Source: Escherichia phage NC29. From it: DNA of 6,259 bases. Below, in pieces: positions 65-6,259 of the stretch (the stretch's first letter is position 1; the number at the start of each line of letters is the position of its first letter). The notes under the pieces are model-generated. The model had not been told where the DNA came from. It worked only from the letters and a program-made list of their open reading frames with translations, and ran no database searches. The translations under genes were made by a program, and so were the position numbers. The stretch lies in the sequence record NC_007827.1. One strand, 5' to 3'.

Positions 65-433
65 ATGAAACCCGCTCATCGCCTTACTCATCCAATTCTT
101 GGTTCTTGGTTGTTTAAGTGTCCTGTTTATATTCGTTATGAGTCGCTTCATCATGGTCGCCTTATCAAGGTCCGTGCTGTTCGTGATTTGTCCCCTCGTC
201 AACGATTGATTGCTAATCCTAAGAATTGCTTTGACGTTGTTATTGCTGAAATTGATCTTACTTATGAAACCGTTACTTGGTTTGATTTTATGGATGAGGA
301 ATATGCCGCGTGTACCCCCGAGGTTATGCAGCTTCTCATTTCCTCTATTGACTCTTCTGATGTTATTCGTTCTGTAGAAGACCCGACCGTTGATTCAGGT
401 GATATGGATTGGCTTTATGAAATTGTGGAGTAA
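65..433 (+). CDS. hypothetical protein, H-A spacer ORF1 (122 aa; basic N-terminal half, strongly acidic C-terminal half)
   Basis: ATG at 65 preceded by SD-like TAGGAG (52-57, 7-nt spacing); uninterrupted 122-codon frame ending TAA 431-433; third codon positions strongly T-biased like the core phage genes; no resemblance I can recognise to phiX174 proteins A-H. Confidence 0.6.
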   Translation: MKPAHRLTHPILGSWLFKCPVYIRYESLHHGRLIKVRAVRDLSPRQRLIANPKNCFDVVIAEIDLTYETVTWFDFMDEEYAACTPEVMQLLISSIDSSDVIRSVEDPTVDSGDMDWLYEIVE

Positions 434-436
434 TTT

Positions 437-529
437 ATGGAAACTGTTATCGGAAAATTTATTGCTCTGGCTGTTGTTGCTCTTATGCTGTATGGAATTT
501 CCCGCTTGATTAGTAGGACTTTGAAATGA
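437..529 (+). CDS. hypothetical small hydrophobic peptide, H-A spacer ORF2 (30 aa, METVIGKFIALAVVALMLYGISRLISRTLK)
   Basis: ATG 437 lies 3 nt after the ORF1 stop, with GGAG (427-430) at 6-nt spacing; a hydrophobic core long enough for one transmembrane helix followed by a basic tail; T-biased third positions. Below the 60-aa cutoff of the supplied ORF track, found by hand translation. Confidence 0.4.
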   Translation: METVIGKFIALAVVALMLYGISRLISRTLK

Positions 530-702
530 AGTATTTTAGCCTTGTGGATGAACACTATGCTTATTGCCCTGATTCGCGCATTTTGCACATCACTCGTAGT
601 CGTGTTTCTGACCCTCGGTATGAGCGTCGTTTTCTTACTGATGAGGAGCATCTTGCACTTCTGGATTGGTTGAAAAATCGCCCAACTTATATTAATTCTT
701 GA
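526..702 (+). CDS. hypothetical protein, H-A spacer ORF3 (58 aa, MKYFSLVDEHYAYCPDSRILHITRSRVSDPRYERRFLTDEEHLALLDWLKNRPTYINS)
   Basis: ATG 526-528 overlaps the ORF2 stop TGA 527-529 (ATGA coupling); AGGA (515-518) at 7-nt spacing; T-biased third positions; stop TGA 700-702. Found by hand translation. Confidence 0.5.
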   Translation: MKYFSLVDEHYAYCPDSRILHITRSRVSDPRYERRFLTDEEHLALLDWLKNRPTYINS

Positions 703-728
703 CAAGTCTTTGATACACCGTCTATATT
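699..728 (+). promoter_or_regulatory. sigma70-like promoter upstream of gene A (pA-like): TTGACA - 18 nt - TATATT
   Basis: -35 TTGACA at 699-704 (6/6 consensus), 18-nt spacer, -10 TATATT at 723-728 (5/6); position equivalent to phiX174 pA just upstream of gene A. Confidence 0.45.
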
Positions 729-2712: not shown

Positions 2713-3171
2713 ATGTCTAATCTTGTTGCTACCGATGTTAATTTTGCTACCTCTGTTGCTGCTCTGAAGATGCTTCAGGCTTCTGCTGTTCTTGATATCA
2801 CTGAGGAAGATTTCGATTTTCTGACTGGTGATAAGATTTGGATTGCTACTGACCGCAATCGTGCTCGTCGTTGTGTTGAGGCGTGTGTTTATGGAACGCT
2901 GGACTTTGTTGGATACCCTCGCTTTCCTGCTCCTGTTGAGTTTATTGCTGCCGTCATTGCTTATTATGTTCATCCCGTCAACATTCAGACGGCCTGTCTC
3001 ATCATGGAAGGCGCTGAGTTTACGGAGAACATTGTTAATGGCGTCGAACGTCCGGTTAAAGCCGCTGAACTCTTTGCGTACACCTTGCGTGTTAAGGCTG
3101 GATTCAAAGAAACGGTTCTGAGTGCTGAAGATAATGCTCGTCAGAAACTTCGTGCAAGTGGAGTTATGTAA
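2713..3171 (+). CDS. D: external scaffolding protein D
   Basis: 152 aa; ATG 2713 with GGAGG (2702-2706) at 6-nt spacing; near-identical over long stretches to phiX174 gpD (LQASAVLD.TE.DFDFLT...WIATDR.RARRCVEACVYGTLDFVGYPRFPAPVEFIAAVIAYYVHPVNIQTACLIMEGAEFTEN). Confidence 0.95.
   Translation: MSNLVATDVNFATSVAALKMLQASAVLDITEEDFDFLTGDKIWIATDRNRARRCVEACVYGTLDFVGYPRFPAPVEFIAAVIAYYVHPVNIQTACLIMEGAEFTENIVNGVERPVKAAELFAYTLRVKAGFKETVLSAEDNARQKLRASGVM
2891..3121 (+). CDS. E: lysis protein E (embedded in D, +1 frame)
   Basis: 76 aa; MERWTLLDTLAFLLLLSLLLPSLLIMFIPSTFRRPVSSWKAL... is nearly identical to the phiX174 E N-terminal transmembrane domain, including the conserved Pro21. Confidence 0.85.
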   Translation: MERWTLLDTLAFLLLLSLLLPSLLIMFIPSTFRRPVSSWKALSLRRTLLMASNVRLKPLNSLRTPCVLRLDSKKRF

Positions 3172-5281: not shown

Positions 5282-6259
5282 ATGTTAGGTGCCGTTGTTG
5301 GTGGTATTGCTTCAGCCTTAGCCGGTGGAGCAGCTTCTAAGTTGTTTGGTGGTAAGCCTGCCTCTCAGGCCGCTACCGAATCCGCTGGCCTTTCTAATGG
5401 TCAAGGTGTTATTGGTATGGACCAAGATGCCGGTATTCAGTCCGCTATTCAGGGTTCAAATGTCCCAAATGGTCAGATTCCCGCTCCTACTACTACAGGT
5501 GGCGTTATGTCTGATGCTGGTAATATGATTAAGAATGCTGGTAAAGATTTGCTTGATGGTGTTATGACTGCCGGTAGTGACCGTGTTAAGCAGGCTTTGA
5601 TTGACAGATTGGGTGGTAATAATGCAAAGAGACAAGGAAAAGCAACCCGTGATTACTTGGCTGCAGCCTTCCCTGAACTCAATGCATGGGAACGTGCTGG
5701 AGCTGTTGCTTCCGGCTCCGGCTTGGAATCTTCCAGTCAGGACCAGCAGAAAGAGTTGATGCGAATGCAGCTGGACAATCAGAAAGATATTGCGAAGATG
5801 CAGATGCAGAATAATTTGCAGATTGCTGGTATTCAGTCCGCTACTTCTCGTCAAAATACGAAGGATTCTGTTTATGCTCAGAATGAGATGCTTCAGTACA
5901 ATCAACGTGAGTCACAGGCACGTGTTGAGTCTATCCTTGCCAACACTAACCTTACGGATAAACAGGCTACCCATGAAATCATGAGGATGGCCCTTACTCG
6001 TGCTCAGGAGACTGGTCAGCATTTGACTAACTCTCAGATTATTGCTTTGGAGAAAAAGGTTTATGCAGAAATTGGAAAAATTCATCAAGATACTCAAAAC
6101 TCTCGCTATGGTAGCTCTCAAGTTACTGCTGCGGCGAAAGATGTTACGAATATGATTACCGATGCCGCCTCAGGTGCTGCTGATTGGGCCTCTCAGCAAT
6201 GGAATTCGTTCTTCAAGGATGGTAAGTCTAATGGCATTCCTCTTAACACCAGAAAATAA
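5282..6259 (+). CDS. H: minor spike / DNA pilot protein H
   Basis: 325 aa; N-terminus M.GA..GGIASALAGGA.SKLFGG and internal TRDYLAAAFPELNAWERAGA, IAGIQSATSRQNTKD.VYAQNEML.Y match phiX174 gpH; AGGAG-like AAGGAG 5266-5271 upstream; stop TAA is the last three bases of the window. Confidence 0.9.
   Translation: MLGAVVGGIASALAGGAASKLFGGKPASQAATESAGLSNGQGVIGMDQDAGIQSAIQGSNVPNGQIPAPTTTGGVMSDAGNMIKNAGKDLLDGVMTAGSDRVKQALIDRLGGNNAKRQGKATRDYLAAAFPELNAWERAGAVASGSGLESSSQDQQKELMRMQLDNQKDIAKMQMQNNLQIAGIQSATSRQNTKDSVYAQNEMLQYNQRESQARVESILANTNLTDKQATHEIMRMALTRAQETGQHLTNSQIIALEKKVYAEIGKIHQDTQNSRYGSSQVTAAAKDVTNMITDAASGAADWASQQWNSFFKDGKSNGIPLNTRK

Follow-up and report, generated by a model that had tools for sequence, protein, structure and literature searches.

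Escherichia phage NC29 (NC_007827.1) carries, in the 761-nucleotide (nt) interval between genes H and A, a 30-codon open reading frame (ORF), ORF2, that is very probably a genuine, lineage-specific small gene for a single-helix membrane peptide, as judged from its sequence and that of its relatives. We regard it as rather probable that ORF2 is a real coding gene, the middle one of three in an accessory cassette found only in alpha3-like microviruses, and that its product is a membrane-embedded partner in the host envelope. The window, meaning the whole stretch of 6,259 nt analyzed here, is a complete alpha3-like microvirus genome (Bullavirinae, Alphatrevirus). An earlier note on this DNA had singled out ORF2, and the coordinates, translation and place that it gave are exact; what it overlooked are an equally conserved ORF that overlaps ORF2 in the +1 frame, and the existing deposition of the gene from phage Lilleven. 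The features needed for the argument are:

437-529, plus strand: ORF2, ATG start, TGA at 527-529, 30 residues (28-30 in relatives), product METVIGKFIALAVVALMLYGISRLISRTLK
427-430, plus strand: Shine-Dalgarno sequence GGAG for ORF2, within the last ORF1 codons, 6 nt before the ATG
458-502, plus strand: apolar core F8-S22 of ORF2, 15 residues, the predicted membrane-spanning part
503-526, plus strand: basic C-tail of ORF2, net charge +2/+3, also serving as the Shine-Dalgarno region of ORF3
417-509, plus strand: overlapping +1-frame ORF, MKLWSNLWKLLSENLLLWLLLLLCCMEFPA, a rival or additional coding frame
65-433, plus strand: ORF1, the first cassette gene, 122 residues, soluble and beta-rich with a hypervariable middle (codons 64-104)
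526-702, plus strand: ORF3, 58 residues, the most conserved cassette gene, whose start overlaps the ORF2 stop

We compared the H-A region of 14 GenBank genomes with loci from IMG/VR and from public assemblies, 58 loci with 33 unique cassettes in total. The public assemblies were found via homologs of ORF1 and ORF3, so ORF2's own conservation does not bias the sampling. The ORF2 frame is open and its ATG invariant in 58/58 loci. A frame broken in close relatives, which the earlier note had named as the finding that would speak against its peptide, was thus seen in no relative, including the cassette with a highly diverged ORF1. That cassette, on contig L057 (ORF1 allele P0030, <50% identical), keeps ORF2 as METVIGKFIALAIVALMLYGIYVTINRILK, with the ATG abutting the ORF1 TAA. 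Over ORF2 codons 1-21 it differs from the window by four synonymous changes and V13I in frame 0, and in the +1 frame these changes include L-to-P, S-to-L and W-to-L.

Composition and the pattern of variation suggest that frame 0, whose peptide includes FIALAVVALMLYGISR, is likely to be translated and selected as a peptide. Mean pairwise nt identity is 94% in the 437-505 core, versus 76-87% in ORF1. Codon-usage log-odds, scored against the phage's own F, G, H and A genes, are +0.32 bits/codon for frame 0 and -0.20 and -0.26 for the other frames; the sign is positive only for frame 0 in every relative, and 50% of frame-0 third positions are T. The variable columns fall 9/2/9 on codon positions 1/2/3, and the events 49/3/17. 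Since recombination inflates the number of events counted on the ORF1+ORF3 tree, we rely on the columns instead. The middle codon position sets hydrophobicity, so the position that determines this property is the one almost never changed. Replacements are conservative (I/V, F/L, V/I, L/F, S/A/T), with a mean BLOSUM score of +1.28 versus -0.23 in randomized mutations. Automatic gene callers call ORF2 in most metagenomic contigs and in Lilleven, and at the loci where they skip it the sole change is of the upstream GGAG to GGAA or GGGG.

ORF2 is joined to both neighbors by conserved stop/start proximity or overlap, the arrangement of a coupled operon, and the tight coupling claimed in the earlier note is borne out: the ORF1 TAA (431-433) precedes the ORF2 ATG at 437, and the ORF2 TGA (527-529) and ORF3 ATG (526-528) share ATGA. 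There are 30 unique junctions, 29 of them complete. The gap from the ORF1 TAA to the ORF2 ATG is 3 nt at 29/30 and 0 nt at 1/30, and a pattern search finds the A/GTGA overlap with ORF3 at 27/29 complete junctions; L048 also has GTGA, and only ID32 differs. The GGAG ahead of ORF2 is kept at 25/30 unique junctions, is GGAA or GGGG in four, and is absent in L057. An alpha3 record from the 1980s (M25640, Kodaira) marks a ribosome-binding site at the place homologous to 427-430.

The ORF2 tail comes in two types that differ in length by a single 3-nt indel, the sole tail-length difference found. Tails ending ...RLIRRFP go with GGAGG and a GTG start of ORF3 (16 unique sequences), and tails ending ...RLI(S/D/N)RTL(K/R) go with AGGA and an ATG start (11). 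This pairing looks like Shine-Dalgarno strength compensating for start-codon strength. ORF1 and ORF2 also share a frame, with only TAA and one further codon between them. We deem a read-through fusion of the two unlikely, because termination in E. coli is efficient at TAA when the next base is A, G or T.

If ORF2 is translated, its product is likely inserted in a membrane, going by its sequence. The earlier note had described an uninterrupted hydrophobic run of about 17 residues followed by a basic tail; the basic tail stands, but Lys7 lies inside the run, which leaves F8-S22, 15 residues long, as the stretch without charged or strongly polar side chains. The best 19-residue window has a Kyte-Doolittle mean of 2.15 (usual threshold 1.6), and the mean of the core is 2.4-2.95 across all variants. 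All 29 complete variants share one charge layout, with an N-tail of 0, an apolar core and a C-tail of +2/+3. By the positive-inside rule, this predicts an N-terminus out and a cytoplasmic C-terminus.

A tblastn search with ORF2 matches 25/25 alpha3-like records (85-96% identity over 27-28/30 residues) and, among 50,697 phage records, no others even at E<=10. The synteny is constant, with ORF2 lying between the 122-residue and 58-residue ORFs, after H and before P_A and gene A. No significant match was found for ORF1, ORF2 or ORF3 in Pfam, PHROGs, NCBIfam or PADLOC. For ORF2, Pfam, PHROGs and NCBIfam gave no hit at E<=1 except three insignificant PHROG hits (E>=0.03), and no PADLOC model of anti-phage defense or anti-defense matched any of the three. 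Homologs are confined to ~6-kb alpha3-like contigs in searches of 5.8 billion proteins by word index and 1.84 billion exhaustively, which makes the cassette a lineage-specific accessory module; an exhaustive profile search with ORF1 gave 3 clusters, all alpha3-like, and the ORF3 homologs too are on alpha3-like contigs only. A host origin of the cassette was considered, and no DNA match was found in 5,426 complete E. coli genomes.

ORF2 is not new as a sequence feature. The Lilleven record (MK629527) annotates all three ORFs as hypothetical proteins, and its QBZ71503.1 is the same gene as ORF2, as are the unannotated ORFs of, among others, alpha3, phiK, St-1, WA13 and NC3; the locus is unannotated in 23/25 GenBank records. 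The window has the 30-residue form with a ...SRTLK tail and an ATG start of ORF3, whereas Lilleven has the 29-residue form with a ...RRFP tail and GTG. Our literature search found no analysis of the ORF2 peptide, its membrane character or its conservation, and a 2026 description of an alpha3-like therapy candidate gives the canonical genes only.

Several observations weigh against this account of ORF2. Its functional assignment is drawn from context only, and its expression and localization are predicted. The ORF2 Shine-Dalgarno sequence is degraded at 5/30 junctions. With just 15 residues the apolar stretch is short, and simple summation on the Hessa scale gives borderline values (+0.9 kcal/mol over 19 residues, -1.3 over 15). 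Of the single-pass membrane architecture that the earlier note proposed, the single helix with its conserved layout stands as the product of a very probably genuine small gene, but hydrophobicity by itself is not above chance: 3/13 plus-strand ATG ORFs of 25-45 residues are more hydrophobic than ORF2. All three are off-frame by-products of T-ending codons in this T-rich genome, so hydrophobicity alone does not distinguish ORF2. The ratio of nonsynonymous to synonymous polymorphism (pN/pS) fails to single out frame 0 (0.39-0.45 in frame 0, 0.27 in +1), parsimony counts of events do not tell the two frames apart either, and frame-specific filtering tests are non-significant (P=0.20 and P=0.28). 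Frame-0-synonymous variants are rarer in the sample than conservative replacements and mostly singletons (P=0.05), which leans toward the +1 frame. Finally, synonymous sites in the ORF2 core are nearly invariant, and a frame-0 peptide alone does not explain this. In codons 8-21, synonymous third-position transitions are seen at 1/13 sites in 32 genomes and 0/13 in 16 genomes, whereas in the same 16 genomes the values are 159/323 = 0.49 for gene A and 0.52 for ORF3 (Fisher P=2e-4 for the core versus gene A). Among 333 windows of 14 codons in gene A, not one falls as low as the ORF2 core. Restricting the comparison to T-ending codons, which allows for the mutational bias of single-stranded DNA (ssDNA), gives P=0.014 versus gene A and P=2e-4 versus the flanks.

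One reading of these frozen sites is that the selected product is instead, or also, the +1-frame peptide MKL(R/W)S(K/N).WKLLSENLLLWLLLLLCCMEFP(V/A) at 417-509, the core being dual-coding and overprinted as E is in D. We consider this unlikely. The +1 ORF is open in all relatives and stops at a fixed place, its nonsynonymous event fraction is 0.41 versus 0.66 in randomized mutations, and it has acquired 0 stops versus 4.7 expected. Transitions that are nonsynonymous in both frames are seen at 1/20 sites, those nonsynonymous in one frame only at 7/25 and 7/21, and those nonsynonymous in neither at 2/2, which is what independent selection on both frames predicts. The low +1 pN/pS and the singleton status of most frame-0-synonymous variants lean the same way, and dual coding, if true, would explain the frozen sites, for which RNA or DNA structure offers no alternative explanation. 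However, codon usage of the +1 frame is poor in every genome. ATG417 lacks a conserved Shine-Dalgarno sequence, leaving the second frame without an initiation signal, and it is in any case fixed by conserved Y-E codons of ORF1. T-ending codons in this genome generally yield open hydrophobic +1 frames as a by-product: those of ORF1 and ORF3 are open as well, with pN/pS of 1 or more. In Lilleven, a cultured isolate, the +1 peptide carries S5L, L12P and P22L, and in L057, a metagenomic contig, it carries L3P, S5L and W11L and stops earlier, yet frame 0 is unchanged or conservatively changed in both. A frame-0 helix that tolerates I/V/L/F swaps gives a low +1 pN/pS by itself, and the frame-specific filter test is non-significant (P=0.28). 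That the 69-nt core is dual-coding and the Leu-rich peptide MKLRSK.WKLLSENLLLWLLLLLCCMEFPV is also made seems to us decidedly unlikely, and an additional +1 product of any kind besides frame 0 lies between these two grades. Such a peptide (MKLRSK., LLSENLLLW...) would be started at ATG417 or by a +1 shift at ORF1 CTT-T.

Freezing of synonymous sites could also reflect a nucleic-acid element, be it a structure in RNA or ssDNA, a site bound by protein or a signal for replication or packaging, with the ORF incidental; the high nt identity of 437-505 fits this as well. We find it very improbable, since the three-base periodicity of the variation (9/2/9 columns, 49/3/17 events) is not expected of a non-coding element. 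RNA and DNA folds of 400-560 from the single sequence are not more stable than shuffles (z +1.3 and +1.2), a consensus fold of 28-30 sequences shows no gain over column shuffles (z 0.0 and +1.4), and no Rfam match in the ORF2 region and no promoter or terminator match inside ORF2 was found. With folds, consensus fold and Rfam all null, we reject a structured element as the explanation of the frozen sites. ORF2 might alternatively be a mere coupling or leader ORF that sets the translation level of ORF3 through a peptide without function. The conserved stop/start overlap with ORF3, the ORF3 Shine-Dalgarno sequence encoded by the ORF2 tail, the covariation of tail type with ORF3 start codon (GGAGG/GTG, AGGA/ATG) and a frame-0 pN/pS that is only moderately low are all compatible with such a role. 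Coupling needs no specific amino acids, yet the middle codon position is near-invariant, residues are replaced conservatively and every variant has the same charge layout; ORF2 length is held at 28-30 codons, and the core is far more conserved than expected of a spacer. We accordingly judge this explanation improbable.

Two observations on neighboring frames touch the same subject. The +1 frame of ORF3 contains, at 548-673, a 41-residue, very hydrophobic ORF, MNTMLIALIRAFCTSLVVVFLTLGMSVVFLLMRSILHFWIG, which is open in all relatives. Its pN/pS of ~1 marks it as a by-product of T-ending codons and a negative control for the +1 question in ORF2. The central codons of ORF3 also show a run of invariant synonymous sites. 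In the record from dog feces, L003 (MG945254), the depositor's 'similar to hypothetical protein' at 438-809 is a long +1-frame ORF (123 residues, ...CCMEFPV) and not ORF2, which means that the alternative frame is annotated in at least one public record.

How ORF2 might be expressed depends on the transcription signals around the cassette. The search found no promoter or terminator match between H and ORF1; the candidate signals lie at the other end:

699-728, plus strand: P_A-type sigma-70 promoter, TTGACA-18-TATATT, 11/12 matches, overlapping the ORF3 stop codon
729-759, plus strand: terminator-like hairpin GCCCTCATAG...CTACGAGGGC followed by T6, directly before gene A, read from the sequence

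The promoter is the top sigma-70 match in the genome, with its TTGACA kept in the alignment, and an element resembling the hairpin is present in L057. As both are located after ORF3 and not after H, we infer that ORF1-ORF2-ORF3 form the distal end of late transcripts reading through H. The hairpin would then be the equivalent of T_H, the post-H terminator of phiX174, and would end an H-ORF1-ORF2-ORF3 transcription unit; this draws on phiX174 transcription maps.

In the mechanism that we propose, ORF2 would be transcribed on long late mRNAs that read through H and translated by ribosomes ending at the ORF1 TAA 3 nt upstream, or by ribosomes binding GGAG. Termination at the ORF2 TGA would pass the ribosome to the overlapping A/GTG of ORF3. 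The product would be a 28-30-residue bitopic inner-membrane peptide with a 7-residue neutral N-tail, a 15-residue apolar helix between K7 and R23 and a +2/+3 C-tail. ORF2 is the sole membrane component of the cassette, and within the inner membrane of the infected cell it may act as an embedded partner for the two soluble proteins of the cassette.

We favor an accessory envelope or host-interaction role over a second lysis protein, for which two further genes are relevant:

2891-3121: gene E, inside gene D, intact
2146-2322: gene K, overlapping the A/C genes

The preference for a host-interaction function comes from the cassette being lineage-specific and absent from E. coli genomes and from the hypervariable, mosaic middle of ORF1; hypervariable mosaic regions are common in conflict-related genes. 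An exclusion or envelope-modifying role, for example keeping a second phage from entering or modulating a membrane protein of the host, is a tentative proposal that the context suggests and that we hold with less than even confidence. The earlier note had proposed, as speculation, that ORF2 might modulate lysis, exclude superinfecting phage or target another membrane enzyme. For a second lysis-related peptide, whether as a lysis protein of its own or as a modulator of E/MraY timing, we found no support. The presumed place of ORF2 on late transcripts would suit such a role, and a lysis protein can be a single-helix peptide of such a size, as is the 37-residue Sgl of the ssRNA phage M, which blocks MurJ. 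Nevertheless E is present and intact, no similarity of ORF2 to any lysis family was found, and phiX174- and G4-like phages lyse without ORF2, which has no match outside the alpha3 group. In the only published experiment on the evolution of lysis time in an alpha3-like phage, ST-1, lysis came ~4 min earlier with mutations only in A, F and H, and none in E or the H-A region (PMC3324380). On these grounds both a lysis function and a lysis-modulating one appear improbable.

The statement in the earlier note that microviruses have one membrane-targeted peptide is a simplification: it is right about E, but the small hydrophobic K protein is another candidate membrane-directed microvirus peptide. Like the predicted ORF2 product, K of phiX174 is a small hydrophobic, non-essential accessory protein of Bullavirinae, but it has 56-58 residues, overlaps A/C and is unrelated to ORF2 in sequence and position. 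The phiX174-type E is a single-gene lysis protein, a SlyD-dependent inhibitor of MraY. ORF2 shares with it a small one-helix membrane peptide (predicted for ORF2), the Bullavirinae setting and late expression (inferred for ORF2). E, however, has 76-91 residues and is overprinted in the +1 frame of D, whereas ORF2 has 30 and its own slot in the H-A cassette. The helix of E has a functionally essential proline; the ORF2 core is without proline and shows no similarity to the E profile (no Pfam hit). The very small lysis proteins of ssRNA phages, such as phage M Sgl, resemble ORF2 in size class and in having one helix, and Sgl shows that so small a peptide can hit a specific membrane enzyme, but they have no sequence relationship to ORF2 and belong to a different virus class. 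Our favored working model for ORF2 is that of small inner-membrane regulatory peptides of bacteria and phages, such as KdpF (29 residues), AcrZ (49 residues) and MgrB (47 residues), and of membrane proteins for superinfection exclusion, such as T4 Imm and HK97 gp15: a single helix, flanked by charges, that works through a larger membrane protein to which it binds. ORF2 has no homology to any of these, and the two exclusion proteins are larger.

The Bullavirinae genome is the textbook case of a fully annotated genome, with 11 genes whose completeness was shown for phiX174 by synthesis. The alpha3 branch has about 700 additional bases, treated as non-coding in most GenBank records and recent papers. 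If a three-gene cassette under purifying selection lies there, this model group has 14 genes, and the cassette is a compact accessory module that is easy to test, in a phage whose reverse-genetics toolkit is complete. Were ORF2 to block superinfection or target a membrane protein of the host, it would rank with the smallest known phage effectors. A dual-coding core, if true, would be a second E-in-D-like overprinting in Bullavirinae, with two membrane micropeptides in ~90 nt, and a clean natural case of overprinting inside a micro-gene. The importance of ORF2 would grow if dual coding or a specific membrane target were confirmed.

The neighbors of ORF2 behave as genes. In-frame pN/pS is 0.27 for ORF1 and 0.10 for ORF3, and 1 or more off frame, and this frame-specific purifying selection identifies the H-A block as a gene cassette and not a spacer. 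ORF1 is mosaic, with pN/pS of 0.10 in codons 1-63 and 0.51 in codons 64-104, and some genomes have a 32-residue N-terminal extension (154-residue form, P0026/P0028; among L046-L049). ORF2 and ORF3 remain typical beside the P0030 allele of ORF1 on L057. Predicted models are confident for ORF1 (predicted local distance difference test score, pLDDT, 89.6) and for ORF3 (pLDDT 82.7; four strands and a helix), and a search found no informative structural neighbor for either model. In the deposited St-1 sequence (L013, GQ149088, 23-432), ORF1 is split by a 1-nt frameshift into pieces of 108 and 35 residues, and the older alpha3 sequence (L038/L016, X60322/NC_001330) is likewise short by 1 nt; both sequences keep ORF2 and ORF3 intact. 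These differences are either sequencing errors or a sign that laboratory strains can do without ORF1.

The window aligns end to end with NC3, ID32, NC35, WA13, alpha3, phiK, St-1 and Lilleven at 85-93% identity. Its gene order is the usual A, B, K, C, D, E, J, F, G, H, with H ending at 6259 and the gene A ATG at 762. The H-A interval, with its three same-strand ORFs, is present in all alpha3-like genomes at ~82-84% identity and is unannotated in most records. On the minus strand, a 96-codon ORF with a TTG start (415-705) covers exactly ORF2 and ORF3; transcription of the minus strand is not known in microviruses.

Elsewhere in the window, an insertion of ~200 nt lies at 2480-2715, between the gene C stop (2479) and the gene D ATG (2716). 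All GenBank alpha3-like phages lack it, their alignments resuming only at about 2702, and it makes the window ~170 nt longer than its relatives. No tRNA and no Rfam match was found in this segment, and its fold is not better than shuffles (z -0.06). Positions 2493-2649 match unannotated DNA of ~75-77-kb E. coli Kuravirus podophages (MN03, vB-EcoP-XT18/32/73, FS2B and KarlSchell_Bas89) at 75-79% identity (E=6e-23), and in MN03 the match sits inside a 1.26-kb spacer without genes. The segment may be a non-coding element swapped between ssDNA and double-stranded DNA coliphages.

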